A stretch of 64,000 nucleotides of DNA from an uncultured virus (IMG/VR IMGVR_UViG_3300037400_001705). Its lineage: Duplodnaviria > Heunggongvirae > Uroviricota > Caudoviricetes. Numbering within the stretch: position 1 is the first letter of the stretch; each line of letters opens with the position of its first letter. Shown one piece after another: positions 9,615 to 62,378 of the stretch. Below the pieces are notes generated by a model. The model was not told the DNA's origin, searched no databases, and worked only from the letters and a program-made list of their open reading frames with translations. Made by a program: the position numbers and the translations under genes. Location of the stretch: the IMG/VR virus record IMGVR_UViG_3300037400_001705. One strand, written 5' to 3'.

Positions 9615-9647
9615 AGTCGTAGCGTTTTTCTGATTTCTGTGTAAATT

Positions 9648-9765
9648 CGTGACCGCCTGAGACCGATTCTTGTTGTTCACGTTGTTGTTGTTGAGGTTGC
9701 CGTTGGTGCCGTTGAAATTCCAACTGTTGTTGGTGTTGTACCTCTGAGCAAACCACCGGTTGACG
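9648..9765 (-). repeat. DGR template repeat (TR)
   Basis: 118-bp ungapped match to 10419-10536; AAC-rich; all 17 mismatches fall at TR adenines. Confidence 0.96.
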
Positions 9766-11735: not shown

Positions 11736-11775
11736 GATTCTTAATCTTTAATGTTTCATCTTTAATCTTTCATCT

Positions 11776-47288: not shown

Positions 47289-47296
47289 TACCTTTG
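47289..47296 (+). promoter_or_regulatory. -7 promoter box of the rightward accessory operon
   Basis: TACCTTTG, about 80 bp before ATG 47380. Confidence 0.65.
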
Positions 47297-47379
47297 CAGT
47301 ACATAAGAGATATAGTATTAACCAAAGGAGCGCAGCGTCTGGGCTCGCCTGCAATCAGGAACAAGGGACGCACGAAGTT

Positions 47380-48000
47380 ATGGCAAAGTTTACAGACAAT
47401 CAGAGAGAGAGCGCGAAGGTAGCAGCTATGACAGCTTACCAGAACACACTGATTGAATCCTACCTTTTCGGCGCAACCGACGAGGAGCGCGAGAACATGA
47501 AGAAGGCCTTCAACGATGACACGAAGGCGGGTGCGTTCCTGCTTATTCGTGGAACTGACTCAAAGGTCAACGAGAACGGAGAGCTGACAACCACCGACAA
47601 AGATGGTAACGTTGAAGTGTGGAAAGGTGCGTATGTGTTCACGTCTCTAACTTGGAAAGTAGACAAAGAGACTGGAAAGGTGACGGAAACGCGGAACTAC
47701 TTCCGTGCTCCTATTGAAGTTAATACGTGGGTACGTTGCGAGCGTGTCGTTAACTCGTGGATTGACTATGCCGAGCGCAAGTATCAAGACGTTTTGGACA
47801 CCATTACAAAACGTCGCGAGAAGGTTGAGAAGGATTGCAAAACGTTGATGGCCGCAGCCGTTGCCCTTCTTGAGTTTACCGACACTATTCCCGAGAAGTT
47901 CGTTGAGAAGTATCGCGAGACATACCGTGAAGGCGTCCGCTACGGTTACGCATTCGACGATGAGATTGTTTCCGCCTTCACGGAAAGCGACGGCAAGTAA
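47380..48000 (+). CDS. hypothetical protein, first gene of the accessory operon
   Basis: ORF of 206 aa. Confidence 0.85.
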   Translation: MAKFTDNQRESAKVAAMTAYQNTLIESYLFGATDEERENMKKAFNDDTKAGAFLLIRGTDSKVNENGELTTTDKDGNVEVWKGAYVFTSLTWKVDKETGKVTETRNYFRAPIEVNTWVRCERVVNSWIDYAERKYQDVLDTITKRREKVEKDCKTLMAAAVALLEFTDTIPEKFVEKYRETYREGVRYGYAFDDEIVSAFTESDGK

Positions 48001-48025
48001 TCGACACCGCACAACCAAACAAGAC

Positions 48026-48058
48026 GGGACGGGGAGAAATCCCCGCCCTATCTTTTTT
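48026..48058 (+). terminator. intrinsic terminator
   Basis: GGGACGGGGA-GAAA-TCCCCGCCC-TATCTTTTTT. Confidence 0.7.
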
Positions 48059-48065
48059 GATACCA

Positions 48066-48131
48066 TTTCAAAAATCCCCTGACGAGTCTTTGAGAATTAA
48101 GACGAAACACCTGGCGTGTCGGGATCTGAAA
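48066..48131 (+). ncRNA. hammerhead ribozyme (type I)
   Basis: Stem I ATCCC/GGGAT, core CTGACGA, stem II GTCTT/AAGAC, GAA, stem III ACAC/GTGT, GUC cleavage triplet ending at 48120. Confidence 0.9.
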
Positions 48132-48193
48132 AATCTCCAGTGTATTGTCCGACTGAACGAACGGACTGAACGAATAAAACGAACGAACGATTT

Positions 48194-48583
48194 ATGAGAA
48201 CGAACGAACAACTGGCCCGAACGAACGAGCCGAACAACCGAACGACTAACGATGCTGCCAGACAGCTTCGCAGACGTCAGGCAAAGAGAAATGAGAATGT
48301 ACGGAGAGCGATTTTAGACGCTATCGAGAGTACGATTCCGTATGCTCCGCGCCTGATTGAGTTCCCGAACGAGATTGTAGTACGAACGAAGTACGAGAAC
48401 CACGCTATTTTCCGCGCCAAGTATCTGCGAACGAGTACGCATTTCCCCGGCATTGTTCCAGAGCTGGTGAACGATAGCGGTGGCTACATGCTGATAACGT
48501 GGTTGACGTTTGGCTCTCTGCTGAGATTGCTCAAGGAAGTACGACAGGGCAATGAGATTAAGAATTTCGATTTCTTCATGTAA
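48194..48583 (+). CDS. hypothetical protein between the two ribozymes
   Basis: ORF of 129 aa; N-terminus encoded by AACG repeats. Confidence 0.65.
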   Translation: MRTNEQLARTNEPNNRTTNDAARQLRRRQAKRNENVRRAILDAIESTIPYAPRLIEFPNEIVVRTKYENHAIFRAKYLRTSTHFPGIVPELVNDSGGYMLITWLTFGSLLRLLKEVRQGNEIKNFDFFM

Positions 48584-48594
48584 ACGATACGATT

Positions 48595-48726
48595 ATGAAG
48601 TACGTACAGAAATTCAGGGTTGCCTATTGGTACATTGTATTGGACGGCAAAGAGATTAGGTCAAACAAGTACGAAGGGACAGGTTATCGCCCAAAGATTG
48701 AAAGCGACCTGATTAGAATAGATTAA
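48595..48726 (+). CDS. 43-aa hypothetical peptide
   Basis: MKYVQKFRVAYWYIVLDGKEIRSNKYEGTGYRPKIESDLIRID; stop abuts the twister. Confidence 0.45.
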   Translation: MKYVQKFRVAYWYIVLDGKEIRSNKYEGTGYRPKIESDLIRID

Positions 48727-48798
48727 CACAGAGCGACGGCAGTACGATTGTGCTGCCGGTAATGTGGCCATCCTTCGGGATGCTGGTTGCAAGCCCAG
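48727..48798 (+). ncRNA. twister ribozyme (P5-type permutation)
   Basis: CACA-GA-GCGA-[P1 hairpin]-G-T^AA-TGTG-GC-[P3 CATCC TTCG GGATG]-CTGG-TTGC-AA-GC-CCAG. Confidence 0.88.
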
Positions 48799-48799
48799 A

Positions 48800-49450
48800 C
48801 GAACAACATTCAAGCGGTTAGAGCGTATGCGGAGCCTGCGAAGTACGCAAGTACGATGAACAGAGAGAGCTGCAGCCGTTACGTAGACGAAACCGAGGTG
48901 AACGAGTTTCACGTAGGGGAGTAGTTGAGCCGACCTGGAAAGATGGTGCAAGGGCTACGTTTTAGGACGTCCCCAAGATGGCTTTGAACAATTTATATTA
49001 CATGATTGATTCTCGCAGTTGATTGCGAGTACGATATAGAGTTGGCTACCTATCTCGAGTACGACTGTAGAAATGCAGTACGATTTATCAGAGGATAATT
49101 CGTGGTGGTTCCCGTCGAAAGGTACGATAACACATTTAATCACTTTAGGATGAATCGGGCCGTGTACTTGTGGAGTACGATGACCCCACCGCTACAGACG
49201 AATTAGATGTTTGTCTGGACGGATGGTGGAATCTTGCGCCAAAGTACGATGAACGGCTGCAATGAAAGATATTACGAGGTGCGAGACCTCAGCATAAAGA
49301 ACGGCCTGACAGATGACCAAATCTGTCACATTCCCTCGGTTGGGGCAACGACGGCCTACATTGTTAGGAAAGTCCCAGGTGAACGAAAGACGATAAAGAA
49401 CGAAGAGGGAGAGACTACGGGAGAGAGTGGAATTACATCTACTCTCTCTT
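48800..49450 (+). ncRNA. candidate large structured ncRNA 1
   Basis: No convincing ORF; many hairpins and long-range complementarities. Confidence 0.6.
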
Positions 49451-49475
49451 ACTATTAACCAAATATTGTACGATT

Positions 49476-49706
49476 ATGAAAAGAAAGCATTTCAGAATGA
49501 TTGCAGGCATCATCCTGCATCCCGTGAGAATCCTCGTTGCACATTATTACCGCAACACGTATCAGAACGTCATCCGTCGCAACATTGCCGAACGTTGGCA
49601 TTGGAAGAACTACGACAGGATGCACCACATGAGCGAGGTTACAGGTACGGCCTACACGAAGAGCGACCTTTACGGCAAGCTCATGGAAGAAACCTGCATC
49701 TATTAG
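49476..49706 (+). CDS. hypothetical protein
   Basis: ORF bounded by repeat elements. Confidence 0.75.
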   Translation: MKRKHFRMIAGIILHPVRILVAHYYRNTYQNVIRRNIAERWHWKNYDRMHHMSEVTGTAYTKSDLYGKLMEETCIY

Positions 49707-49756
49707 CCTCTCGCAGCCTTGAACGGCTGCACCACTAACCGAAAAAAGCAACAATT

Positions 49757-49954
49757 ATGAAGAAATTCCTACAAATCTCAAAGAATGTTTTGAGTATGAG
49801 TGTTATTGTACTCATCAGTTTGGCAATCTGCTCCATTGTGGCATTGGCCATCCTCTACGTGTTCGGTATCAATAATACGACGCTTCGGGCTGGTGCCTGC
49901 ATCGTATTCTTTGGCACTATCATCGTGGCCCTTATGTTGGGCGCGTTCGATTAA
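49757..49954 (+). CDS. small two-TM membrane protein
   Basis: Two hydrophobic helices. Confidence 0.7.
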   Translation: MKKFLQISKNVLSMSVIVLISLAICSIVALAILYVFGINNTTLRAGACIVFFGTIIVALMLGAFD

Positions 49955-50024
49955 CGGTCTTACGGATTTTTGTGGCGAAAATGCTGCAAAAATCGCTCAT
50001 GTTTCACCAAATAGAATGAACGAT

Positions 50025-50303
50025 ATGGATAAGTTAAAGAAATTGCAGATGTTAGCCCGTGTTCTCAGAGAGCACCGCGGCTACAAAGGTAACAAAGAGT
50101 CAGACCATTCCAACAGGTTTGACTTCAAGTTTGACAAGAAGGGCGACATTTGTGGGCCGTACATAGACATCTATAATGCCGAGAAGGGTGCAAATCTCTT
50201 CCTGTGGCCTGATTTTATCGAGCTGTGTCACGGCTTGGGTCTGTCTCATTACATTACCTATGACCAATTTGACCTCAAAGAGGTGGTGCTACACATCTAC
50301 TAA
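50025..50303 (+). CDS. hypothetical protein
   Basis: MDKLKKLQML...; bounded by elements. Confidence 0.7.
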   Translation: MDKLKKLQMLARVLREHRGYKGNKESDHSNRFDFKFDKKGDICGPYIDIYNAEKGANLFLWPDFIELCHGLGLSHYITYDQFDLKEVVLHIY

Positions 50304-50358
50304 GTCTCTCGGCTCCTGATGGAGCCACATATTTTTCACCAATTTAAAAAACGAACGT

Positions 50359-50613
50359 ATGAAGAACAAAGTTTTAAGAACAACGGCAATTTTCCGTTGC
50401 ATCGTGACGCTCAAGAACGGAGCGCATCGCATTGTAAGGACAACGATTGACAATGTAGCCAAGTTGAATGCTGCACTTTTGCAGTACCGCGACTTTGGTC
50501 TGCTTAACAATCGCTATTCAGATTTCATGAAAGAGCTGGGCCTGGCTGCCTACGATGTTCTGTCCTGCAAGGTCATCAACGAACGGACAGGACAAGAATT
50601 GATGACGATTTAG
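50359..50613 (+). CDS. hypothetical protein
   Basis: ORF bounded by elements. Confidence 0.75.
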   Translation: MKNKVLRTTAIFRCIVTLKNGAHRIVRTTIDNVAKLNAALLQYRDFGLLNNRYSDFMKELGLAAYDVLSCKVINERTGQELMTI

Positions 50614-50670
50614 CCTTTATAGGGTGGGGACGTTTTGCCGCCATCCTACCACAAACCAATAACTTTCACG

Positions 50671-50838
50671 ATGGTAATAAATAAAGTAATCCGCGATAAG
50701 AGCGGTTTTTGGTATGTTGGCAGACTTTTGACCGCAGATCCAGACGGCGTGCCCGTCTTTCAGCGCCTGTCAGAACTCTATTGCCACAAGGGATGGGCAT
50801 TGAATTTCGCCCGTCGTATGTGTATCAAGCTATCGTAG
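50671..50838 (+). CDS. hypothetical protein
   Basis: MVINKVIRDKSGFWYV... Confidence 0.65.
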   Translation: MVINKVIRDKSGFWYVGRLLTADPDGVPVFQRLSELYCHKGWALNFARRMCIKLS

Positions 50839-50911
50839 CCTTTTCGGCATGGGTGGGTTTTATTTCGTTCGTTCGCCTGCCTGTGCTGCTATTAACCAAA
50901 TCTTTATTGTT

Positions 50912-51337
50912 ATGTTAAAATCAGAATTTTATGACAGAACGCACGTATCTCTCTCGGATGAAGAGTATGGTGCAGTAGAGAACATCTACAATCGTGTCCA
51001 GATGGACAAAGACGAGTTTTGCAGACTGTGGCTTGACAATCGCGACAACAAAATCATCAACGAGCTTGTGTCGTATGCCATGGGTGTCGAGAAAGCGAAT
51101 GCCGCATTAGACAAAGTAAGCAAAGAGCTGGAAGAGAAGTTGGCTGGAGAGTTAGCAGAGAGACAGAAGCACCTGCTGGACTTTGGCCGCAAGGTTGTTT
51201 CCTATCTTGACGACGAATCACGGCTCTACGACTTTTGTGTAGAAGAGTTCGGTCAGAACTTTGTCATCAAGGTCAAGCTGGAGTGTAACATCGACCTTGA
51301 CACCAACGAACGCGAGTATCTTGCAAAGATGCTGTAG
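50912..51337 (+). CDS. hypothetical protein
   Basis: MLKSEFYDRT...MDKDEFC. Confidence 0.8.
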   Translation: MLKSEFYDRTHVSLSDEEYGAVENIYNRVQMDKDEFCRLWLDNRDNKIINELVSYAMGVEKANAALDKVSKELEEKLAGELAERQKHLLDFGRKVVSYLDDESRLYDFCVEEFGQNFVIKVKLECNIDLDTNEREYLAKML

Positions 51338-51393
51338 TCTATTGAACTGGTAACAATTTGTCACCAGTTCACTATTCACCAACAATTTACAAT

Positions 51394-51609
51394 ATGAACA
51401 AAAAGAATTTATTCAAAAAACAGGCTAATGTTGCTGAATGTACCATCGTTTGGAAAGACTCTGGCGAGAAAGAAAATGTAATCATCAGCCTTGACGGCAG
51501 CGACAACGACGGCATTTTCTTTGTCTGCAATTCAGAGGAAGAGTTTGCTCAACTGACAGAAGATTCCAGCGGCGAAGATTTTGACATTGTTACATTCAAG
51601 ATTTTGTAA
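51394..51609 (+). CDS. hypothetical protein
   Basis: MNKKNLF...DDGIFF-like acidic domain. Confidence 0.7.
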   Translation: MNKKNLFKKQANVAECTIVWKDSGEKENVIISLDGSDNDGIFFVCNSEEEFAQLTEDSSGEDFDIVTFKIL

Positions 51610-51671
51610 GTCTCTCTATCATTTTCGTGACCTCACGAAAATGGTACATTATTCACCAAATATTATTACTT

Positions 51672-52046
51672 ATGAAGATTTTGATTGAGACACGCTCTCC
51701 AGAGAACAACAACCTCCTGCATCCTGTATATAAGCAGGTGATAGGAGAGAGAGAAATTCCGTGTGCTGACGTAAAGAAGATTGGCAACTGTTGGTATGCT
51801 ATCAATTATGGTGGCCACATCGTTACAGGCGTGGAACCTGAGCGTATCAAGGAAGTACGCACGAATAGCGGTCTACTTTTCAATGTACATTTCGACCACA
51901 CGGGTTATCTCCAAGGAAAGAAATTCTGTTGTGAGGCGTACAGAAATCCGAACAACGGCTACGGATCGTGTTATTGCACCCTTGACGGTATCATGGACTA
52001 CATTCACCAAGAGGAACGATTTGAAGCACGTCTCTCGCAGTCTTAG
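51672..52046 (+). CDS. hypothetical protein
   Basis: MKILIETR...; stop lies inside the hairpin of an element. Confidence 0.75.
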   Translation: MKILIETRSPENNNLLHPVYKQVIGEREIPCADVKKIGNCWYAINYGGHIVTGVEPERIKEVRTNSGLLFNVHFDHTGYLQGKKFCCEAYRNPNNGYGSCYCTLDGIMDYIHQEERFEARLSQS

Positions 52047-52076
52047 GACTGCACTATTCACCAAACATCAAAGAAT

Positions 52077-52313
52077 ATGGAGAAACTTTTGAGAAAACAG
52101 CTCCATCTTGTCGGCTCAGCTGGCACGTTGGAAAACCTTTGTGAGTACGCTAAGAAAAGACTTTACTGGTCGCAGTTCGAAACCTCTGAGAGTACACGCT
52201 ACGAATCCCGTATTGGTAAGGTGTACGATGTGAGTAGTTCTAACGGCCTTGTTTCTGATATGGTCATCATTCAGGGTAAAGTACGTTGTTCACTCTTTCG
52301 GATAGAGAAGTAA
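52077..52313 (+). CDS. hypothetical protein
   Basis: ORF. Confidence 0.7.
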   Translation: MEKLLRKQLHLVGSAGTLENLCEYAKKRLYWSQFETSESTRYESRIGKVYDVSSSNGLVSDMVIIQGKVRCSLFRIEK

Positions 52314-52316
52314 GCT

Positions 52317-52553
52317 ATGATGACGGCTTTCAGAAGCTCTCTTATATGGAGAGATACCGTTTCCTATGCGGTTAGCATCTTCTCTTTCATTATCCGTGGA
52401 GAGGGAGAAATGAGCGGACGAAAGTTTGCTGAACATATCCGTAATTATTGCGGATGCTCTGACGAAAAACAAAAGGTCATTCTTTCCGAGATTGAAAAGC
52501 ACATCGTGAGGATTGAGGCCACCTACAGAGGAACAAAGTATTACTGCGTATGA
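52317..52553 (+). CDS. hypothetical protein
   Basis: ORF. Confidence 0.6.
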   Translation: MMTAFRSSLIWRDTVSYAVSIFSFIIRGEGEMSGRKFAEHIRNYCGCSDEKQKVILSEIEKHIVRIEATYRGTKYYCV

Positions 52554-52708
52554 ATAACGGTAAAGTCAAGTGGCTCACGTTCACGGACAATCCCCAATGG
52601 GGTCGTTACTTCATTGGCGAGAGTGATTCTAAGGCAGAAGCCCACACCAAAGGAAAGGCGGCAAACAAAGGCCGCTACGTTGTTGAACGAAGAGTAAAGT
52701 TCAAGTAG
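52550..52708 (+). CDS. 52-aa hypothetical protein
   Basis: MNNGKVKWLTFTDNPQWGRYF...; ATGA coupling; stop is the TAG of an element. Confidence 0.6.
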   Translation: MNNGKVKWLTFTDNPQWGRYFIGESDSKAEAHTKGKAANKGRYVVERRVKFK

Positions 52709-52762
52709 TCTTTTGCGGCTCTTGCATGAGCCGCACAAACAACCCTTTAAAACTGAAAGAAT

Positions 52763-53650
52763 ATGGAAAGAAGAGAAAAAGTAAATGCAATCAGAAGTCT
52801 GGCTGTAAGTAGCGGACGGATGATTAGTATGGACCCCGAAAGCTGGGGCGAGCATCGCCTGAACGCTTTGGAATCTGAGCTGCAGGAGTTTCTTGCAAAA
52901 ATTCCCGAAGAGGTACGTGACGAGTACGAAGATAAGTACATCGGCAAATACAAAGAATGGCTCTATGCTATGAGCCGTTGTGTCTCTCAGATGGTGACGG
53001 GTGCAGGCGGTTGGACGTCTTCCATGCTTCGACGCAAGCAGAAGAACGACCAGTACGAGCGTAATGCCCGTGAACGTCTTGATAAGTGGGCCGAAAAGGT
53101 CATCAAGCGCTGCAATCGTCAAGAACGTCTGACCGGCTGGGCTGAGGTTGAACGCTTGCAGGAAAAACTCGACAGCCTTAAAGAATCCCAGGAGATGATG
53201 AAGGCTGCAAACAAGATTATCCGCAACAATAATCTTGCAGAGGTTGAAAAGGTTGACGAGTTGGTTTCCCTTGGCTTTAACGAACAAACTGCATTGAAGC
53301 TCATGGAGCCAGATTTCTGCGGACGAATCGGCTTTGCCTCTTACGCTTTGAGCAACAACCTTGCCACCATCAAGGACACGGAAGCCAAAATCAAGCGTCA
53401 TGCTGCAATGGCAGAGCGTGCGAGAGGTGGTGACGAGGTTCACGATTACCCTTGGGGAAAGCTGGTTGTTGCTTTCGGCGACGAACGCTACCGCTTCATC
53501 TTCGACGGAAAGCCAGCCCCGAACGTCATCAGCCTCATGAAGTCGAACGCTTTCAAGTGGAGCCCTTCAAACTCAGCGTGGCAGCGTCAGATTACCGCCA
53601 ACGCAAAGTATGCCGTGAAGCGTATGATTGAAGAGCTCAACAACATGTAG
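52763..53650 (+). CDS. DUF3560-like / polyvalent-protein-associated domain protein
   Basis: GFASYALSNN.ATIK; RFIFDGKP...LMKSNAFKWSPSNSAWQRQIT.NA. Confidence 0.7.
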   Translation: MERREKVNAIRSLAVSSGRMISMDPESWGEHRLNALESELQEFLAKIPEEVRDEYEDKYIGKYKEWLYAMSRCVSQMVTGAGGWTSSMLRRKQKNDQYERNARERLDKWAEKVIKRCNRQERLTGWAEVERLQEKLDSLKESQEMMKAANKIIRNNNLAEVEKVDELVSLGFNEQTALKLMEPDFCGRIGFASYALSNNLATIKDTEAKIKRHAAMAERARGGDEVHDYPWGKLVVAFGDERYRFIFDGKPAPNVISLMKSNAFKWSPSNSAWQRQITANAKYAVKRMIEELNNM

Positions 53651-53702
53651 CCTTTAGCCCGCCTTGCATGGTGGGTACCACAAACCAACAAATATTTGAA
53701 TT

Positions 53703-54017
53703 ATGAGAGTAACATTAGCACGGAATTGTGGCAACAATATTGTTGAACACATTATCTTTGACGACCCTTACAGGGCACAAAATTTCTACGGGACATATTG
53801 CGGCAAGGTAGCTGGCGTCGTGAAGTGCGAAAGCATCTACACTATCGGTGCAGGCGAACACAAAGAAGAAAACTGCTTCAACTGCCCGCTGCATCACTGC
53901 TGCCTATGCGAGAACCGCAAGTTCACAGACGAGAACGGCACGAAGTTCTACGTATCTGTGTGGGACACCACAAAGAAAAGCAACGAACAGAATGCTATCA
54001 AGAAACTCGAATTTTAA
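53703..54017 (+). CDS. Cys-rich hypothetical protein
   Basis: ORF. Confidence 0.7.
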   Translation: MRVTLARNCGNNIVEHIIFDDPYRAQNFYGTYCGKVAGVVKCESIYTIGAGEHKEENCFNCPLHHCCLCENRKFTDENGTKFYVSVWDTTKKSNEQNAIKKLEF

Positions 54018-54085
54018 GAGTAGTCTTTCACTATTTCGTTGACTCCGACGAAATAGTACTATTAACCAATAAAGCAAAAAAAACT

Positions 54086-54259
54086 ATGGAAGAAAAGACA
54101 ATTAAAGTAGAGGGCGAAATAACCCTCAACCTGCACGGAGGAAGCCTATGCACGGCCCTGCTGCGCATCAATGGCGAACAAAAGTATTTTACCTCCCAGC
54201 TGGGTAGCTCTGATCTCATGCAGAAAATCGGTAAACATATCCAAACTCATAGCGTATGA
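54086..54259 (+). CDS. hypothetical protein
   Basis: MEEKTIKVEGE... Confidence 0.6.
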   Translation: MEEKTIKVEGEITLNLHGGSLCTALLRINGEQKYFTSQLGSSDLMQKIGKHIQTHSV

Positions 54260-54543
54260 AGATTGAATTATTTACAGGAGCGAAGACAATCCAAGTAGAT
54301 TGTTTTGCCTGCGAAGAAAAGACGAGGTATCGCATTGCGGCTTATTATGGTGGTGTGTATATCAAAACGCTCTACACCTGCAACAGTGAGATAGAACGTC
54401 ACGAAATGATTTGCAACTACATGAGCCAAACGCACAATGCAGGATGCAAAAACTCTTCTCTTTACGTACGTATTGGCAGTGGCCTTTGCTTCTTCTATTG
54501 CGATGGCCTGATGATTATGGAAGAAGAAATCTATGACGTCTAA
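54256..54543 (+). CDS. hypothetical protein
   Basis: ATGA coupling. Confidence 0.65.
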   Translation: MKIELFTGAKTIQVDCFACEEKTRYRIAAYYGGVYIKTLYTCNSEIERHEMICNYMSQTHNAGCKNSSLYVRIGSGLCFFYCDGLMIMEEEIYDV

Positions 54544-54554
54544 AACATGCTGAT

Positions 54555-54884
54555 ATGAATATAAGTTATTATCTCTATCTCTCAACGGCAAACTGTCAGG
54601 AATCTCACTCTCTTAGAATCTGCTCGGATGCAAATTTGACAGTCATTCGTGATGCCATTTCAAACATTATACGTGCCATGTTTGAAAGACGGCCGCATTG
54701 GTATTCCGAGGAATACGTCAACTGTCAAGCTGACGAAATGACCATGCTGTTTGCTGACCTTCTGAAAGATGGCTCGCCCATCACTAAACGCAAATATCCA
54801 TTCTATCATCTTGGCTTTATCATCACAAATTATCCAATGTGGCCAGACAACAACGGTGGGTATCTGAGCGACTTTCATGTATAA
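54555..54884 (+). CDS. hypothetical protein
   Basis: ORF. Confidence 0.7.
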   Translation: MNISYYLYLSTANCQESHSLRICSDANLTVIRDAISNIIRAMFERRPHWYSEEYVNCQADEMTMLFADLLKDGSPITKRKYPFYHLGFIITNYPMWPDNNGGYLSDFHV

Positions 54885-54946
54885 GTCTCACACCATTTCG
54901 CTGACACCAACGAAATGGTACACTTTAACCCTAAAAACAAAAGAGT

Positions 54947-55129
54947 ATGACAAAAACAATCTTTATGAAAGTCCGCGTCGATTACGATGATGACGGACGT
55001 TACGGCTCATACGAGGCCGACAGCATGGTTGCCGACATGGTTGTAGAGCGTGCGCAGGCACACAACCACACCGTAGAGAACGGCATACGCATTGAGAAAA
55101 TCACTAATCATGGGATAGATAGTTATTAA
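54947..55129 (+). CDS. hypothetical protein
   Basis: ORF. Confidence 0.65.
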   Translation: MTKTIFMKVRVDYDDDGRYGSYEADSMVADMVVERAQAHNHTVENGIRIEKITNHGIDSY

Positions 55130-55148
55130 CCCTTAAACTTATGGGAAT

Positions 55149-55484
55149 ATGGAAAACAATGCAGTAAACAAGGACGCTCAGCGCATCCATGAAATTACGG
55201 GCCGACCAATGGCCGAGTGTGAAGAGCAGGCAAAGCAGATTGCCGAGTGTGTACGTGAAATGTGTGACCGTGTGGTGGAGTTCTACTATCTTAAGAAAGA
55301 CGGCACTACACGGCAGGCTTTCGGTACGCTTCAGCAGGAAGTTGTGATTGCTCATGTGACAGCTGACTCCATGAGAGAGCCAAAGCCTGACCTCGTAACG
55401 TATTTCGATACTGAGGCGCAGGCATGGCGTTCTTTCAAGAAAGTCAACTTCAAGAACTACGTTAAGCAGGAGCCACAAGCATGA
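55149..55484 (+). CDS. WYL-like SH3 beta-barrel protein (DUF2693-like)
   Basis: VEFYYLKKDGTTRQAFGTL...TYFDTEAQAWRSFK. Confidence 0.8.
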   Translation: MENNAVNKDAQRIHEITGRPMAECEEQAKQIAECVREMCDRVVEFYYLKKDGTTRQAFGTLQQEVVIAHVTADSMREPKPDLVTYFDTEAQAWRSFKKVNFKNYVKQEPQA

Positions 55485-55618
55485 CGGATTTAGCCAAAAT
55501 CCTGTGGTGGATTTTTATCGCTTCTCTCACGCTTGGCGTCTGGACACTACCAATCGTAGTGGTTCTCGTCATCATCCAAATGTATCTCAAAAAGAAGCAC
55601 CCGAATTGGTGCAAGTAA
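55481..55618 (+). CDS. small membrane peptide
   Basis: MTDLAKILWWIFIASLTLGVWTLPIVVVLVIIQMYLKKKHPNWCK. Confidence 0.6.
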   Translation: MTDLAKILWWIFIASLTLGVWTLPIVVVLVIIQMYLKKKHPNWCK

Positions 55619-55681
55619 AGTCTTAAGCCGTGCAAAGGACACGGCACTATTTATTGTCTAACCGTTTAAATAGTAAGAATT

Positions 55682-56590
55682 ATGAAGAAAGAAAAGAATG
55701 CCTACACCGTAGAGAATGCGAAAGTTCCAGTAGTACGCTACGACTATTACAAGCGTGAAACAAAAGGCTATCTGCATATCGACGGCGGGCTGGTCTACGT
55801 CACCGTCACGGCTATCTGCATCAACTTCAAGAAGCAGCAGATCACGACGGTTCTCACGGACAAGAACGGCAAGGAGTACAAGCAGGAGGGCACATACAAC
55901 CTCTATGATTCTCCTTCGAAGTTCGAGAATAACAGCCCCATGGAGCCGACAAAGAACTTCACGTACAATCTCATTAAGAACGCTGACTGGGGCAGGCTTG
56001 CCGAGTGTGCAGTATCCAACATCGACGAAGAGGATGGCAAGAAATCTTGCTACATCAACGTCTGGACGTTCGAGAACGGAGCAGCCCAACAGGTTCCAGC
56101 CGTCATCAACGAAATTTCCTGCGACGCTTACGAGAAGTGGCACCTAACGGATGGCTCGCTGCCCGCCAAGTTTTGGGAGAGCCGAGAAGATGCCTTTGCC
56201 TGCAACGAGTACCAGGTTACCGACAGCGACGGCGAGGTGTTTGTGGAGCAGGGCTACCAGATGCGCCTTCTCCCAACTCCTGCCCAGTGGGTCATCATCA
56301 AGCAGATGAGAGCACTCTTCGAGAAAGCCAAGGAAGCAGGACTTTACTTCGTTTGGGACAGAGCGTATTGCGGCAATCTCAAGGCTGTAAACTATCAGAA
56401 CGTCTACACCTTCGATTACGACGCTGAGAATTTCGAGGGTGGAGACCTCATCCCTGTCAATAAGGCTGCGCTTGCTGACACTGGCATCGACTTCTATGAC
56501 TATTGTGGCGACGAGAGTGACAGGTATGCGTTTGCCCTCAATCCCATGGCACGTCAGAAAAAGGAATGGCTTAAGAACCATGCCAAGTAA
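55682..56590 (+). CDS. hypothetical protein
   Basis: ORF of 302 aa. Confidence 0.85.
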   Translation: MKKEKNAYTVENAKVPVVRYDYYKRETKGYLHIDGGLVYVTVTAICINFKKQQITTVLTDKNGKEYKQEGTYNLYDSPSKFENNSPMEPTKNFTYNLIKNADWGRLAECAVSNIDEEDGKKSCYINVWTFENGAAQQVPAVINEISCDAYEKWHLTDGSLPAKFWESREDAFACNEYQVTDSDGEVFVEQGYQMRLLPTPAQWVIIKQMRALFEKAKEAGLYFVWDRAYCGNLKAVNYQNVYTFDYDAENFEGGDLIPVNKAALADTGIDFYDYCGDESDRYAFALNPMARQKKEWLKNHAK

Positions 56591-56647
56591 GTCTCTAAGG
56601 TGGCCTTGCATGGCCACCACAATTATTAACCAATAAATTGTAAGAGT

Positions 56648-57061
56648 ATGAATATTTCAATTAAACCAAATGATTACGTTCGGCCAACGGAGGTGCGTGA
56701 CGAAGTTGTGAAAAAAGTCTGCAATCATATTGTTTCGTATTTAGACAGACTTGAAGTTGACATGGAGATTAGTTTGCAAGGTGCGCATCCTGCTTTATTC
56801 TTTGGAGAAAAGGATGAGGACATGACACACTACAAGAATATGGCAAAAACTGTGCTCTCCACAGAAGAAAATTATATGAACGTGTACTATTACACACGGG
56901 TAAGAGGTTGCGAAATGCGCAAGGTTTTCAAACTGCTGCAAGAAGCTGGCTACTACATCTACTCTCTTAACGAAATGGGGTGGAGTTACGCTATTTCCAA
57001 GTACCCATACCGCAATATGTACAAAGCTGAGCGTGTAGAGTTTAAGTCATTTATTGATTAG
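56648..57061 (+). CDS. hypothetical protein
   Basis: ORF of 137 aa. Confidence 0.8.
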   Translation: MNISIKPNDYVRPTEVRDEVVKKVCNHIVSYLDRLEVDMEISLQGAHPALFFGEKDEDMTHYKNMAKTVLSTEENYMNVYYYTRVRGCEMRKVFKLLQEAGYYIYSLNEMGWSYAISKYPYRNMYKAERVEFKSFID

Positions 57062-57099
57062 TCTTTCTCCCTGCTTGCAAGCAGGGAACAACAAACCAA

Positions 57100-57580
57100 G
57101 TTTTGTTCGCTACGAGCAATCTCACGGCTCGCAGTTGCCATCAGTGAGTGACAGATGGAAAGACCTCCGTCCAGCTCTCCACTATCCGCCGGACGTAAAA
57201 TAAAGGTAGTGCGGTTCTGTGACACAACAAAGTACACGATGTGCGGCAGACGGCTCAGGAAAAGAGGCATAAAACCCGTCGAAACCACTTAGGGACGTAA
57301 AGGCAGTGGGGGTATGCAACCACCAAGAGAGTAACATCGGCTGACGAAGGAAAAGCAGGGTGCTCCTGAGACCATAGAGATGGATAGCGTTAGACCACAA
57401 CTGCGCGAACAACAACTAAAGGCTACCGACGCAGGTATAGTCGTAAAAGAATCCCGCAACCACCGAGCGTAAAAGGCCGACAGACCATAACTGCGGAAAT
57501 CAAAGGCTACCGTTGGACGATAACGCAAAGCGTAAGCCATGGAAAAACTCTTCACGAAATTTCGTGTTGGAATTGGCAAA
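57100..57580 (+). ncRNA. candidate large structured ncRNA 2
   Basis: No plus-strand ORF; hairpins, long-range pairings and internal repeats; bounded by two elements. Confidence 0.55.
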
Positions 57581-57636
57581 AGTCTCATGGGGAATGTGGA
57601 CGCACATTCCCTACTACTAACCAACTACACAAGATT

Positions 57637-58155
57637 ATGGCAAAGCTAAATGTCTACTCATTTGCCGACTATAACGCTGTCCGCTATCTTGCCCATCAAG
57701 TGAAGGATGGAAACGACAGCAGTATCAGTCGCGCAGCTCGTTACATGGCGCATCTTGTGTCGTGTATCGCTGACGAGCGGTGCGTTATCGTTCCTGTGCC
57801 TGGTCGTATAGGTGTCGCTCTCTACACAAAGGTTCTTGCCGAACGTATCTCTGAGCTGACGGGTGTGCGTGTCATGGACTGCTTAAAATGCAAGCCACAC
57901 ATGACGCAGTATCTCCGCAAGTACCGCTATGGTCTTGACAGCATGCGACCGATGGACTTTTCAGTTACCGAAAATGTTCCCTCAAACGTTATCCCCATTC
58001 TCATTGATAACGTCCTCGACACGGGAACAACCGTCATGTCCGCTATGCAGGCTCTTGACCGCTCTCTCTACGCTGTTGTGCTGGGCAACACACACAACTT
58101 CCTGCATTTCAATTATCCTATCAACCTCTACGAACAATCTCTCACATGGCAATGA
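57637..58155 (+). CDS. ComF-like phosphoribosyltransferase-fold protein
   Basis: VIVPVP; ILIDNVLDTGTT PRPP-binding loop. Confidence 0.8.
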   Translation: MAKLNVYSFADYNAVRYLAHQVKDGNDSSISRAARYMAHLVSCIADERCVIVPVPGRIGVALYTKVLAERISELTGVRVMDCLKCKPHMTQYLRKYRYGLDSMRPMDFSVTENVPSNVIPILIDNVLDTGTTVMSAMQALDRSLYAVVLGNTHNFLHFNYPINLYEQSLTWQ

Positions 58156-58364
58156 GCGTCAAGTACGAAGCCGTCTGCGAATCGGGCAATACGGATGCTG
58201 ACACCATCCGAACGTTCCCTGACCGCGAATGCGCTGACCTCTTTTGTCAGATTTGGCGTGCCTCGCATCCTGGCACCCATGCTTGGGTACGAGAGACACA
58301 ACACCGCCACATGGAACACAAAACTCTTGGCAGTTCCGTAATGACGGTCGAACTCTACGATTAG
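58146..58364 (+). CDS. hypothetical protein
   Basis: ORF. Confidence 0.65.
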   Translation: MAMSVKYEAVCESGNTDADTIRTFPDRECADLFCQIWRASHPGTHAWVRETQHRHMEHKTLGSSVMTVELYD

Positions 58365-58424
58365 CCTCAGTGTGCAGCGTGATTTTGTCACGCTGTTCCC
58401 AATAACCCCTAAATATATCAGAAT

Positions 58425-58745
58425 ATGACAAAAGCAGACAAATTGTACTTGGAATTGAAGCAGGGACACCCTAACCACCTGATTCTTATCAGACGTAATG
58501 ACTTCTATGAATGCAGGGAAGATGATGCAAAGATTGTGTCAAATGTTCTTGGTATCACATTGTCAAGACACACTACTGGGCTAAAGCATTTCTTCTGCTG
58601 TTTTCCGTTTCATGCGCTCGACACCTATCTGCCTAAGCTTGTCCGTGCAGGCTATAAGGTTGCCATCTGCGACCAGCTGGACGAACCAAAGAAACCCGTC
58701 AAGCGCGGTATTACAGAACTCGTCTCTTCAAACCCACTGAAATAG
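58425..58745 (+). CDS. stand-alone MutS domain I protein
   Basis: YLELKQ.HP..LILIR..DFYE...DA...LGITL; FP.HALDTYLPKLVRAGYKVAICDQ. Confidence 0.88.
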   Translation: MTKADKLYLELKQGHPNHLILIRRNDFYECREDDAKIVSNVLGITLSRHTTGLKHFFCCFPFHALDTYLPKLVRAGYKVAICDQLDEPKKPVKRGITELVSSNPLK

Positions 58746-58779
58746 GTGGGTTCACTATTAACCAAACAACATCATCATT

Positions 58780-59475
58780 ATGAAAAGAAAACTATCACTA
58801 CCCGTAAACTGTTGGGCAGCGGAAGATATTCCGTCCAACAAACTGATTGAAGCCAATTCCGACCATCTGAGTAATTCAGAATTACTCTCTATCATCATTG
58901 GTAATGGCTCCAACACAGAGAATAGTGTAGAACTGGCACGCCGCATCCTGTCAACGTGTGACAACAAACTGTCCAAACTGGCAAAGATGACGCCTAACGA
59001 CCTCTCTTGCTTTCATGGCGTCGGCAAACAGAAAGCGGCTAAGATTATGGCAGCTCTCGAACTCGGCCGTCGCCGTCAGGAAGAGCAGGCCATTGAAAAG
59101 CCAGACTTGGGTACGGCTGTACGCATCTATAACATGATGCACCCTATCATGGCAGACTTGGAGAAAGAAGAGTTTTGGGTGCTTCTCGCAAATCAGAACT
59201 TCAAACTGATAAAGAAATTCCGACTGTCGCAGGGTGGCATCTCTGAGGTGGCCGTGGATATTCGTATCGTCATAAAGGAAGCTGTTCTCAACAACGCTAC
59301 CATCTTGGTGGTCTGCCACAATCATCCGTCTGGTTCTCTACGCCCGAGCAAGTTTGACGACGACCTGACCTTTAGCTTACAGAAAGCCTGTCAACTCATG
59401 CGCATCAAGTTTATGGACCACGTTATCGTGACCGACGGAGCGTATTATTCCTATCACGAACAGGGCAAACTCTGA
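58780..59475 (+). CDS. radC: RadC/JAB-domain protein
   Basis: LSNSELLSIII, HhH GVG..KA, EEFWV, HNHPSG...PS..D, DHVIV. Confidence 0.92.
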   Translation: MKRKLSLPVNCWAAEDIPSNKLIEANSDHLSNSELLSIIIGNGSNTENSVELARRILSTCDNKLSKLAKMTPNDLSCFHGVGKQKAAKIMAALELGRRRQEEQAIEKPDLGTAVRIYNMMHPIMADLEKEEFWVLLANQNFKLIKKFRLSQGGISEVAVDIRIVIKEAVLNNATILVVCHNHPSGSLRPSKFDDDLTFSLQKACQLMRIKFMDHVIVTDGAYYSYHEQGKL

Positions 59476-59535
59476 TTTAGTCTCTCGTGCCCAATGGGTA
59501 ACCATTGGGTAGCCACTAACCAAACTTTTAAGAAT

Positions 59536-60864
59536 ATGGAAACAAAAGAATTATTAACTTACTGCTGGAAACACAAGCTTTTCGGCAAAGGTCTCAAGAC
59601 ATCAAACGGAAAGAATTTGCAGATTATTGATGTGGGATTGTTTGACCGACACCACGGCTCTCGTTTCTTCAACGCAAAACTTGGAATCGACAGCACGCTA
59701 TGGGTTGGCTACGTCTTAGTCTTTGAGAAGTCAAGCGATTTCTACCAGTCCGACATCAAGGATTCAAGCAATGTAATCCTTGTTGTGTGCAGCTCAGAGG
59801 ACCAACCTTGCTTTGCGGCTGACGGAACGGAGATACCGCGATTGGTTGTGAGTGTTCCCGACAGCGTTACCCGCAATTATGATGCTCTGATGGGTGCCGA
59901 TGGCGATACGCTTTGCCACCGCCACATCATGCAGTACACAACTCCGCTTTCGAGACACGCTTGGATTGCTGCCATGCAGACAGAGTTTCTTGAGAACGAA
60001 ACCGAGTATATCAGTAGGTTCTATAAAGAGAGTGGTGATTTGGAAAAGACTTTCTTCATAGCTCTGCTGAGGGCTTTCGGATTCGCCACAAACAAGACGA
60101 CAATGGATCTGCTGGCACGAAACATCTGCATGAACGCCTTGGAGAACTGCCGCGACAACCTCTTTCAGATTGAAGCCATTATTCTTGGTCAGGCTGGACT
60201 TCTCACCCTGGAGCCAGACGCTCAGAGAGCAATACCCGAAAAGTATCTCAAACACGCTCAAATGGAAGGCTATTTCGCAAAACTCAGAAACGAATGGCTC
60301 TATCTGAAAAACAAGTTCAACATGCCGTTGGAAATATCAAGGCTATGCTGGCAACCTTACGGCGGTGGCGGTCTGACTTATCCGAATGTCTATCTGTCAA
60401 TGCTGGCTAATTGGTGGTATTGTAGAAAAATGGATTCAAAGACGGCCTTAAACATCAAGACTGCGAAAGAGGCTATGAACCTCTTCAACACTCATTGCAC
60501 GCCTTATTGGGAAACTCACTACGTCTTTGGCTCCGAGACATCAAAGTGTATGAAATGTCTATCCAACGACAGAAAGGCTTGGCTTGTTGCGGCTTGTCTG
60601 ACCCCGTTCCTCTTCTTCTACGGTAGGCATACCAGCAACGAAGAACTTTGTGACCGCGCTTTCGAGATAATGGAACAGCTTGGCCACTTCTCTACGTCCG
60701 ATACAAACTATTTCAAGAAGTTCGGCTTTGAGCCGACGGACGCTGGAGAGGTTGTTGGAATGACCCACCTGAAAGCCAAGTACTGCAATCCGCAATGCAA
60801 GGCCGGCGCTCCACGCCTCTGTCTTCTCTGCCGTTTTGGACGCGAGTTCATCACAAAACATTAG
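59536..60864 (+). CDS. DUF2851-like protein
   Basis: ELLTYCWKHKLF, FFNAK, FGF..NK, EAIILGQAGLL, YWETHYVFG, C-terminal C..CRFG. Confidence 0.8.
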   Translation: METKELLTYCWKHKLFGKGLKTSNGKNLQIIDVGLFDRHHGSRFFNAKLGIDSTLWVGYVLVFEKSSDFYQSDIKDSSNVILVVCSSEDQPCFAADGTEIPRLVVSVPDSVTRNYDALMGADGDTLCHRHIMQYTTPLSRHAWIAAMQTEFLENETEYISRFYKESGDLEKTFFIALLRAFGFATNKTTMDLLARNICMNALENCRDNLFQIEAIILGQAGLLTLEPDAQRAIPEKYLKHAQMEGYFAKLRNEWLYLKNKFNMPLEISRLCWQPYGGGGLTYPNVYLSMLANWWYCRKMDSKTALNIKTAKEAMNLFNTHCTPYWETHYVFGSETSKCMKCLSNDRKAWLVAACLTPFLFFYGRHTSNEELCDRAFEIMEQLGHFSTSDTNYFKKFGFEPTDAGEVVGMTHLKAKYCNPQCKAGAPRLCLLCRFGREFITKH

Positions 60865-60942
60865 TCTCTTTGTTCTGCACGTTTTTTTCGTGCAGTTCAC
60901 CAATTATCAAAAACCATGTTATAAAATCAGAAAAATAGACCG

Positions 60943-61188
60943 CTGTGTGAATCACTGTGTGAGATTTACATAAAACTTACTGATTATCAGTGTGTTTGTT
61001 GTGTGAATTGCTGTGTGAGTTGGTAAGTATATTTTACAATACCGCCTAATTTACATCAAATTATTTCATAAAAAACCGCCCAAAATCGCGGGTTTTGCGG
61101 GTTTTTGAGGGGTCACACACCAACTCACACACTTAACGTATTGATAATCATTATATTATCTCAAAACCTCACACACCTTCTCACACAG
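60943..61188. repeat. two inverted clusters of TGTGTGA repeats
   Basis: TGTGTGA x4 (60944-61018) facing TCACACA x4 (61113-61187). Confidence 0.8.
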
Positions 61189-61358
61189 TCCCCTATTATA
61201 AATAAGGTACGCAGGCGCAGCCGCTCGCCCATGCGCGATTTTAATAGTTATATATATAATATATTAAAGAAAAATTTTAAAAAGAAAGAAACACGTCTCT
61301 GCTGTTAAAAATCCAAAAGACAGCCTAAATATAAACCGTAAATAATTATCTTTGCAAC

Positions 61359-62378
61359 ATGAAAGAACTGAGAGGTCTCACCTATGAGCAAAACAAGAAA
61401 TTCCGCTTCGCTATCGACAGCGGATATTTCGACGATTGGGAACAGGACCCGCGAAAATGGAAACATACTTTCGCAGGTGCATTCCTATGGAAATACCCAC
61501 ATAGGGTAAAAATCCTCAATATCCTCAAAGATATTGTAGGAAACGTCCCAACGTGGGACGACCTGAACGACGAGGTATTGCGCGACCTCGTAGACGAACT
61601 GACAGGACAGAATCTTGCCACCTCTTCCATACGAACGATGTGTGCCGAACTAAAAGCACTACTGAACAGCAACAAGCGCAAACTGCCGTTCAACGAGTTT
61701 GGTGATATTCTCTCCGTCAAGGGTACGGCTACACAATCCGTTTACCTTACGAGCCGCGAAATGGAAATGTTCATGGCTTATAAGCCAACGACGGACACGG
61801 AGCATTTCGTACACCGAAACTTTTGCGTCAGCATGATGACAGGCGCACGACTGATAGACACGCTGAAGCTGACTATCTCTAACTGCGACATTGAAACAAA
61901 CATGCTCTCGTATGTTCCACAGAAAACGCCCGGGCTGGTGGTCTATGTCCCCGTGGACGAACGCCACAACCTACGCTTCTATCTTGCCGACGTTTGCAAG
62001 GACGAACGATGTCTCGACACATACAACGAGGTCCTGCGTCGCATCTGCAAGGTGATAGGCATTGATACGGTGTGCACCGTGGTCAAGGCTGGCAAGAGCC
62101 GAACGGCACCAAAGTACGAACTTGTCAGCTCACACACAGCCAGACGCACGTTCGCAACGAATCTCTATCTCGCTGGTGTGTCGCTCGAAGACATTGCTAT
62201 GATGATGGGCCACGGCAAGAACATCGACACCACAAAGCGCTACATCTGTGCCGAACGCACACTGAATCCCAGTGTTATGTCTTATTTCCAGAAGCCAGAC
62301 AAACCCGCCACACCTCAGGCAGCGTCCTACACGGATGAAGAACTCGACGCCTACGAGGATGCTCTTCTCGACGAATAG
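61359..62378 (+). CDS. tyrosine recombinase (second, no arm-binding domain)
   Basis: TGAR, QKT, HTARR, MGH, TKRY catalytic residues. Confidence 0.9.
   Translation: MKELRGLTYEQNKKFRFAIDSGYFDDWEQDPRKWKHTFAGAFLWKYPHRVKILNILKDIVGNVPTWDDLNDEVLRDLVDELTGQNLATSSIRTMCAELKALLNSNKRKLPFNEFGDILSVKGTATQSVYLTSREMEMFMAYKPTTDTEHFVHRNFCVSMMTGARLIDTLKLTISNCDIETNMLSYVPQKTPGLVVYVPVDERHNLRFYLADVCKDERCLDTYNEVLRRICKVIGIDTVCTVVKAGKSRTAPKYELVSSHTARRTFATNLYLAGVSLEDIAMMMGHGKNIDTTKRYICAERTLNPSVMSYFQKPDKPATPQAASYTDEELDAYEDALLDE

Follow-up and report, generated by a model that had tools for sequence, protein, structure and literature searches.

The 64,000-nucleotide (nt) stretch of DNA analyzed here (the window) belongs to the uncultured virus IMGVR_UViG_3300037400_001705 (Caudoviricetes) and contains a + strand accessory operon of ~35 small, mostly uncharacterized genes (~47.3–60.9 kilobases (kb), bounded downstream by integrases) whose junctions carry copies of a three-part element: a GYCT-containing 5′ box, a hairpin, and an ACC-containing 3′ box. 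This element is a real, well-defined, and undescribed RNA-level intergenic motif that occurs in more than 80 copies in one phage clade. With a probability of roughly 0.45, we read it as an RNA-level intercistronic processing and stability signal that would act in cis within one long operon transcript. An initial annotation of the window had listed 20 copies on the + strand, all with G-Y-C-T and (A/C)ACC; every one of the 20 lies where it was placed, and the four copies that had been spelled out (50301, 54021, 56588, and 59478) match the sequence exactly.

The consensus element consists of TTAGTCTYT, a hairpin of 6–13 base pairs (bp) and free sequence, and RCTATTMACCAA, followed after 13–18 nt by an ATG. 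Its anatomy was counted in 67 copies, taken from the window together with four contigs of related phages. The 5′ box has the composition T (40 copies), T (48), A (62), G, Y (T in 60, C in 7), C, T, Y, W, in which the G is invariant by definition, and the spacer between GYCT and the hairpin is 2–4 nt in most copies. The stems are mostly G-C, and the loops, mostly of 4 or 6 nt, are unconserved, the commonest (TTGCAT) being found in 13 of the 67. The 3′ side of the stem continues with RC, a linker, and W-M-A-C-C-M-A (consensus RCTATTMACC), and G is almost absent (0–3 of 67) over the ~20 nt that follow the stem. Between ACC and ATG the sequence is poorly conserved and its length varies. The two boxes are ~27 to 58 nt apart; only ~10 positions of the element are well conserved, and within the 3′ box only ~4–5 never vary.

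The 5′ box overlaps or abuts the stop codon of the preceding open reading frame (ORF) in 13 of the 20 window copies: the G of GYCT is the final base of a TAG stop in nine and lies directly 3′ of TAA in four. The stop is 1–6 nt upstream of this G in four further copies, and one copy (57582) is preceded by non-coding DNA. The remaining two (boxes at 52030 and 58722) have the 5′ box within the ORF and the stop in the hairpin loop, as the initial annotation had noticed when it described two copies that begin inside an ORF. Junctions that lack the element are those of overlapping or tightly abutting gene pairs, so that one unit between elements comprises one to four genes. The 3′ box is retained where no ORF follows, in the elements at 57058 and 60861.

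Stem pairing is conserved while stem sequence is not, as had been claimed from the window alone. In the model-fitted alignment, 99.2% of 398 stem cells are paired, compared with 47.8% after shuffling and 38–45% when the partners are slid, and double-sided changes occur at all seven stem pairs. We also counted mismatches independently of the model, allowing G.T and A.C equally, and found 28 G.T and 2 A.C among 66 distinct elements. Because an A.C mismatch on one strand is a G.T pair on the other, this excess indicates that the fold is selected on the sense strand, which points to RNA and makes folded top-strand single-stranded DNA less plausible as the selected form. Compensatory differences are also seen across six relatives in the hairpins 3′ of a conserved gene encoding a 295-residue protein. 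Pairing beyond the single hairpin was sought in 82 elements: flank-flank, box-flank, and box-box pairing was no better than in mismatched-partner controls (duplex energy of 5′ box with 3′ box −0.16 kcal/mol, and −0.14 kcal/mol with mismatched partners), and no closing helix, pseudoknot, or anti-start pairing rose above these controls. A possible 4-bp UAGU/ACUA helix was set aside, being broken by GCCT variants.

The element was searched for with a covariance model (R2) whose first version came from 9 seeds and whose final version came from 40 hits. Over 211 kb, both strands, at an expectation value (E) of at most 5, R2 gave 61 matches, 58 of which lie on the operon strand of five array loci; those outside arrays were three weak matches (E 0.72–4.4) in the related Bacteroides phage LoVEphage, with none in L003. 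Sixteen matches, all on the + strand and within 49703–60910, fall in the window, where the default filters of R2 miss 4 of the 20 copies, which have long stems. A stricter regular-expression-plus-hairpin scan of the 64 kb placed 17 hits in the array and 2 outside it on the + strand (19 in all), and 2 on the − strand. In the complete 75.6-kb genome of one relative (G001, the contig of locus L001), 10 of 11 R2 matches at E ≤ 0.01 lie within the array; a single match (E 0.003) at 68993–69038 (+) of this genome lies far from it. The confinement of matches to the operon strand of arrays argues that the element is not a product of chance, and the search of related phages that the initial annotation had called for recovered arrays, on the operon strand only.

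Sixteen of the 20 window elements were identified by both pattern and covariance model. Fourteen of these are element 1 (49703–49742), element 3 (50301–50342), element 4 (50610–50659), element 5 (50835–50899, with a long, irregular hairpin), element 6 (51334–51382), element 8 (52027–52064, stop in loop), element 9 (52705–52746), element 10 (53647–53688, the one whose orthologous hairpins show compensatory changes among six relatives), element 11 (54020–54069), element 13 (55617–55665), element 16 (57579–57624), element 18 (58719–58765, stop in loop), element 19 (59477–59523), and element 20 (60861–60903), the last, after which no gene follows. Elements 2 (49954–50010, long stem), 7 (51607–51659, 13-bp stem), and 17 (58361–58409) came from pattern and hairpin scan, and element 12 (54882–54932) from pattern and alignment. 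The other two of the sixteen, element 14 (56588–56633; pattern, model, and alignment) and element 15 (57058–57099), form the left and right edges of a one-gene cassette that is absent from L001, and element 15 is followed by non-coding DNA. All lie on the + strand, as do three incomplete copies beyond the original 20. One, at 49421–49460, has an 8-bp hairpin and ACTATTAACC, lacks a GYCT box, and ends 15 nt before the ATG at 49476; one, at 55120–55134, is a lone 3′ box (TTATTAACCCTT) without hairpin, seen in sequence and alignment, within which homology to L001 restarts; and one, at 47314–47325, is a 3′-box-like sequence (TATTAACCAAA) with neither hairpin nor 5′ box.

Arrays of the same element were found in at least seven further related, uncultured contigs from viral and metagenome collections. 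A scan of the viral collection for the box pattern returned 46 stretches, mostly single chance matches, with arrays in only four contigs; single pattern matches elsewhere were for the most part the ones that chance would produce given the information content of the pattern, and the distribution across metagenomes is a lower bound. A scan of genome contigs with the family of the 295-residue protein found no prophage of this clade, the only matches being distant homologues from unrelated bacteria. None of the families in Rfam 15 corresponds to the element and our literature searches found no description of it, so that the motif may still be called undescribed, as it was at the outset; R2 could seed an Rfam family. 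A weak Rfam match to the Histone3 stem-loop lies over element 56588.

The equivalent operon of LoVEphage has hairpins followed by TTCACCC-type leaders, without the GYCT box and without ribozymes. At its junctions in 10700–12680 (locus L050, accession MW660583.1), the order is hairpin, TTCACCC, and TTTAAAYTTTG 4–5 nt before the ATG; if this last sequence is a −7 promoter box, the messages there would be almost leaderless. The same phage carries an RtcB RNA ligase gene at 39267–40532. A term search of the paper describing LoVEphage (PMC8525569) found no mention of intergenic motifs, hairpins, promoters, or ribozymes.

Alignment of the window with six relatives indicates that the boundaries of gene gain, loss, and replacement sit at elements. 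Of 66 homology-block ends, 31 lie within 10 nt of an element, compared with 11.9% expected. At 52049, differing upstream genes and hairpins are joined onto the same 3′ box and downstream gene in the window and L001, and at 53688 a shared upstream gene, hairpin, and 3′ box lead into differing downstream genes. The box and hairpin of element 12 (54884–54921, 38 nt) are 97% identical to L001 between unrelated flanks, and the presence or absence of the one-gene unit 56574–57056 is delimited precisely by two successive 5′ boxes. An insertion in L001 begins just 3′ of a 5′-box-like CAGTCTCT at the end of the phosphoribosyltransferase gene (58142), and contigs of a further relative omit 49963–50350, 51624–52063, and 59369–60908, each from element to element. 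The crossovers fall at the 5′ box, between hairpin and 3′ box, and 3′ of the 3′ box, a variety that fits homologous exchange at short conserved boxes. The cassette idea of the initial annotation therefore holds for these alignments, with the reservation that breakpoints that preserve genes are necessarily intergenic, so that the enrichment at elements is partly forced; some indels also lie at element-free junctions (52319/52556).

One cassette is non-coding: the ~480 nt between elements 15 and 16 (57100–57578, +), just upstream of the phosphoribosyltransferase-like gene, are 76–80% identical in L001 and partially present in L088. Each of the six frames is interrupted by stops in both phages, and no reading frame is conserved; Rfam has no match, and the folding energy is unremarkable (z +0.65). 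The words CGTAAA(A/G)G and AGACCA recur within the cassette.

The pattern TAnnTTTG, which corresponds to the −7 promoter box consensus of Bacteroidota known from Bacteroides promoters, occurs five times in the 0.7 kb upstream and once in the 13.6-kb array, within a gene (53753). The upstream occurrences, found by pattern count on the + strand, comprise TAccTTTG at the operon head (47290–47297), shortly upstream of the 3′-box-like sequence at 47314–47325, and four boxes between 46666 and 47178. The surrounding 46600–47300 is AT-rich and gene-free, lies between the divergent replication and accessory operons, and has several TAnnTTTG boxes on the − strand as well as the five on the + strand; these may be tandem promoters or mark small transcripts. 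Terminator scan and sequence identify a canonical intrinsic terminator 3′ of the first gene (48028–48062, +; GC hairpin at 48030–48045 and T run), and expression of the remaining 13 kb would consequently require read-through or antitermination.

Two ribozymes stand at the head of the operon. A hammerhead candidate with a complete core lies directly 3′ of the terminator (48074–48125, +; 21.6 bits, E 0.38, below the gathering score), and a twister-P5 ribozyme lies two genes beyond it (48727–48798, +; 46.1 bits against a gathering score of 37.6). The first junction carries a hammerhead in the window and in L002 (5889–5960) and a twister-P1 in L001 (6227–6290); the class of ribozyme has thus been swapped naturally at one junction. 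A twister or hammerhead is present at the operon head in all seven array contigs that include it. Hammerheads clustered around prophage genes have been proposed to process long phage transcripts (PMC3088659), and gene-by-gene processing of ribozyme-studded prophage operons is a long-standing proposal.

Two repeat families lie in this part of the operon. Repeats of the GAACGAACG type run through the leader of the second gene into its first codons (48150–48260, +), and 13 copies of the hexamer GTACGA are packed on the operon strand into ~1.1 kb around and beyond the twister (48330–49468; ~0.3 expected by chance), in a region that is partly coding and partly apparently non-coding (48800–49200). 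The GTACGA cluster is kept in every relative (L001 6653–7876, L002 6387–7491, L063 932–1793, and the minus strand of L017 and L088). It might bind protein, on RNA or on DNA, in the manner of iterons or parS-like sites.

In the processing and stability reading, the array would be transcribed as one long RNA from promoters near 47.3 kb that passes the terminator at 48.03 kb; that the transcript is single we infer, together with its cleavage, the cut site, and the enzyme, the first of these because the array lacks internal promoters and terminators. Each junction would then present a single-stranded GUCUYU box at the stop codon, a hairpin 2–4 nt on, and a G-free leader, RCUAUUMACCAA, with the AUG 13–18 nt later. 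A host endoribonuclease measuring from the hairpin, for which the RNase Y or RNase E/G homologue of Bacteroidota would be a candidate, could cut in the adjacent single-stranded box, leaving the upstream cistron with a 3′ hairpin that shields it against 3′–5′ exonucleases and giving the downstream cistron a leader that is short, standard, and unstructured. The long message would be divided into gene-sized units whose stability and translation are set separately, and the non-coding cassette at 57100–57578 would be released in the same way. The same job has been proposed for the twister and hammerhead with which this operon begins. The identical boxes at all junctions would double as short homology patches for cassette gain, loss, and swap, as in the PeSLs of T4-like phages discussed below.

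Work on Firmicutes supplies a precedent for such measuring. RNase Y is described as cutting after a G at a set distance upstream of an essential hairpin, with efficiency tuned by the composition of the spacer (PMC11321564), and in PMC5449607 this distance is 6 nt. Measured against these rules, the element has a compatible layout, judged from its sequence: a G, a spacer of 3 nt plus 2–4 nt, and a downstream hairpin that is 99% paired. RNase Y and RNE/G are both present in Bacteroidota, Prevotella among them, and a 5′–3′ exonuclease is absent (PMC10234816). The cut could fall in either box or in both; with 3′–5′ exonucleases as the only threat to its products, cutting in the G-free 3′ box would serve best. 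A more specific version of this proposal, which we hold tentatively and think rather doubtful as a whole, is that the element serves a hairpin-guided endoribonuclease system as recognition module and has been multiplied by a phage clade to every junction of the accessory operon as a protein-dependent counterpart of ribozyme punctuation, with boxes that serve as cassette-exchange joints and with one cassette non-coding.

Several observations weigh against the processing and stability reading. We know of no reader for the invariant ACC or for the GUCUYU box. No gene of the window operon is common to all array loci, so no dedicated phage enzyme can be named, and the relatives are few and closely related, so that co-occurrence counts are not independent. 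The ribozymes are confined to the operon head and absent inside arrays, and at no orthologous junction does one take the place of an element; as ribozymes and elements never exchange places, their functional equivalence is only an analogy. The distance from ACC to ATG is 13–18 nt in 53 of the 64 copies with a downstream ORF (4 of 68 rows have none), and so tight a spacing would fit a role in translation or in transcription start equally well. The RNase Y rules derive from Firmicutes (PMC11321564 and PMC5449607), and 5′-phosphate ends in Bacteroidota prefer A at +1 (PMC10234816), which is easier to reconcile with cleavage in the 3′ box than with cleavage after the G of the 5′ box.

The exchange of cassettes could itself be the main selected function, the boxes serving as portable homology, perhaps with excised mini-circles, and the RNA role being secondary. 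A mainly recombinational role is compatible with RNA processing and does not exclude it. We regard it as unlikely to be the principal explanation, even with the enriched block ends, the cassette at 56574–57056, the 97%-identical island, and the relative that skips from element to element all on its side, as is the behavior of PeSLs in T4-like phages (PMC2839356 and PMC4122927). The enrichment is partly the result of intergenic constraint, the indels at 52319/52556 use junctions without elements, and homology alone leaves the paired yet variable stem, the G.T bias, the G-free leader, and the fixed spacings unexplained. A form of this idea in which folded single-stranded DNA is used, in the manner of integrons, by the tyrosine recombinase adjoining the array had been put forward in the initial annotation, and it is not supported beyond the cassette boundaries themselves. 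Variable stems with conserved flanks do recall attC sites, and cassette-type variation is present next to a recombinase. Unlike attC sites, however, the element has no complementary flanking boxes (R′′/R′; the −0.16 kcal/mol given above is that of controls), and its natural junctions lie at three places rather than at a single crossover point; its wobble bias also favors the top strand, and attC sites recombine as a folded bottom strand. The recombinase at 61359–62378 scores 20.5 bits against a cut-off of 265 for integron integrases (TIGR02249), the one at 62440–63711 has no match to that family, and LoVEphage has the same two recombinases without the element. The element is not attC-like, and an integron-like role seems to us very improbable.

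Among readings that act on expression, the element might bound transcription units, its hairpin stopping or pausing the polymerase and its 3′ box serving as a promoter, with very short leaders, for an unrecognized phage-directed factor or polymerase. The stems are GC-rich enough for an intrinsic terminator, yet no U tract follows them, in agreement with the initial annotation: only 3 of the 20 copies pass a lax scan (5 T in 8), and the T's are those of the 3′ box. The element is not a terminator. A sigma-70-style scan found no excess at elements, and the array lacks a host-type box apart from the one inside a gene; the element is not a host promoter either. A phage-directed promoter would agree with the distance of the ACC box from the ATG, with the lone 3′ box behind the host-type operon promoter, and with the LoVEphage junctions, where TTCACCC is followed by TAAAYTTTG-like boxes 4–5 nt before the ATGs. 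Against it, a Pfam search of 34 other window ORFs found neither a sigma factor nor an RNA polymerase, boxes ~27 to 58 nt apart cannot be −35 and −10 elements, the sequence from ACC to ATG is neither well conserved nor constant in length, and the sense-strand wobble bias indicates RNA, not duplex DNA. We judge a transcription boundary to be quite unlikely, and give much the same small chance to a translation device, that is, to termination-initiation coupling or a standby or enhancer leader in hosts that are not known to use Shine-Dalgarno-led initiation and whose messenger RNA processing is little known. Here the proximity of 5′ box and stop in 13 of 20 copies, a hairpin that starts 8–10 nt after the stop (roughly the ribosome entry channel, as estimated from the known footprint), and a G-free, unstructured leader with fixed AUG spacing would all be accounted for. 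An ACC box lies at −24 to −15 in 18 of 26 array genes and in 4 of 45 other phage genes, so that 41 of these 45 start without it; rare outside the array and kept without an ORF and beside the non-coding cassette, the 3′ box is not a general ribosome-binding signal. Pairing of the 5′ box with the start region is also no better than in controls, and in 2 of 20 copies the stop is in the loop. A nut- or put-like antitermination site, loading a factor on RNA polymerase, would explain how the terminator 3′ of the first gene is passed, and box plus hairpin resemble boxA and boxB; the known systems use one or two sites per operon with conserved boxA and boxB hairpin, and not 20 with free stem and loop in an array that has no terminators inside it. 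Nothing in our results spoke for this suggestion of the initial annotation, and it has a very slight probability. Slighter still is that of a new minimal self-cleaving RNA, in spite of the gene context shared with twister and hammerhead, in which new ribozyme classes were found (PMC6765202), and of conserved single strands that flank a variable helix as in the hammerhead core: there is one helix, with unconserved loops and no further pairing of flanks or boxes, in place of a multi-helix or pseudoknotted core, no Rfam 15 ribozyme matches any element at E ≤ 5, and ~10 well-conserved positions are few. Taken jointly, the integron-like, antitermination, and ribozyme readings have a low probability. 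Stoperator-like repressor sites were also set aside, only ~4–5 positions of the 3′ box being invariant. Of the roles first proposed, that of an RNA processing or stability signal is best supported (by the G.T excess, the lack of internal host-type promoters, and the ribozymes at the head), and its variant as an unknown small ribozyme is disfavored by the single helix without a conserved loop.

The window represents most of the genome of a temperate, siphovirus-type phage, with terminase, portal, major head protein, tape measure, primase-helicase, and two tyrosine integrases. Its terminase is nearest to that of LoVEphage and its cultured relatives (51% identity), and a megablast search with 47000–61400 brought up no isolated phage as a close relative. 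A reverse transcriptase of the diversity-generating type (PHROG 1423; 8388–9680, −) adjoins large tail-fiber-like genes, as in LoVEphage. The virus is best explained as a LoVEphage-like temperate phage of Bacteroidota of gut or rumen type. Recognizable products of the accessory operon are WYL_2, phosphoribosyltransferase-like, MutS domain I, RadC/JAB, and DUF2851 proteins, and its first two genes match no family of Pfam, PHROG, or NCBIfam. Genes for proteins such as RadC/JAB, MutS domain I, WYL_2, and DUF2851 are likely counter-defense genes. The tyrosine recombinase that adjoins the array (61359–62378, +) is a generic phage integrase by profile search, and the second follows at 62440–63711. 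Between the last element and the first integrase gene (60930–61200) are several direct and inverted CTGTGTGAG and CACACAC words adjoining a terminator-like hairpin (61086–61100); these words resemble the arm sites for an integrase in an attP region. A weak Rfam match to MIR5998 in the same interval is surely spurious.

The studding of prophage accessory operons with ribozymes is a long-standing question (PMC6765202 and PMC3088659), and two ribozymes with ~20 ribozyme-free elements in one operon make a natural side-by-side system for gene-by-gene RNA processing. If the reading by a hairpin-guided endoribonuclease is true, the prophage ribozyme question becomes testable in one system that holds both solutions, and the element would be the first defined intercistronic signal for Bacteroidota phages. 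The element also offers a practical way to mark where cassettes begin and end in a hypervariable region.

Known systems resemble the element in part. Integron attC sites likewise have conserved flanks and a free stem between promoterless cassettes; here the boxes are unpaired, there is no integron integrase, several crossover points are used, and the fold belongs to the sense strand. The RNase III sites of phage T7 are junction hairpins in polycistronic messages, at which 3′ hairpins stabilize the upstream message; those sites are long, irregular duplexes of ~20 bp or more, and the 6–13 bp stems of the element are by the usual rule too short for RNase III. The intercistronic processing elements of plastids and PPR10-type protected termini (PMC2230500 and PMC3326301) also turn polycistronic RNA into stable, translatable units, in another kingdom and with other machinery, so that the likeness is in logic only. 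The RNase Y sites of saePQRS and cggR-gapA (PMC5449607 and PMC11321564) are like the element in being intergenic, with a G before the cut, a spacer of set length whose sequence matters, and an essential hairpin, and their cleavage gives halves of unequal stability; for the element such cleavage would be a prediction. These sites are single and belong to Firmicutes, whereas the element occurs in 20 copies with a shared spacer consensus and a second box downstream. Ribozyme-punctuated prophage operons (PMC3088659 and PMC6765202) share with the accessory operon its length, its small genes, its position by an integrase, and RNA elements at its junctions, and the window operon itself has a hammerhead and a twister. 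The element differs from these ribozymes in being a single helix without a catalytic core, so that any cut would need a protein, and ribozymes and elements occupy different junctions. PeSLs (promoter-early stem-loops) of T4-like phages are, according to PMC2839356 and PMC4122927, composite stop-to-start motifs at most junctions of a hypervariable block of small genes, with a stem-loop that has G.T pairs and marks the boundaries of indels and replacements. The element shares the stop-to-start arrangement repeated through a hypervariable gene block and the motif-bounded indels and replacements among relatives. PeSLs consist of a tested sigma-70 promoter and a tested terminator, in another host phylum and phage type. 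In contrast, the element has no host-type early promoter box (the lone TAnnTTTG of the array lies in a gene), no U tract, boxes unlike familiar promoters, and a box spacing of ~27 to 58 nt. The element is thus closest in logic to PeSLs and to ribozyme-punctuated prophage operons, and a member of neither class.

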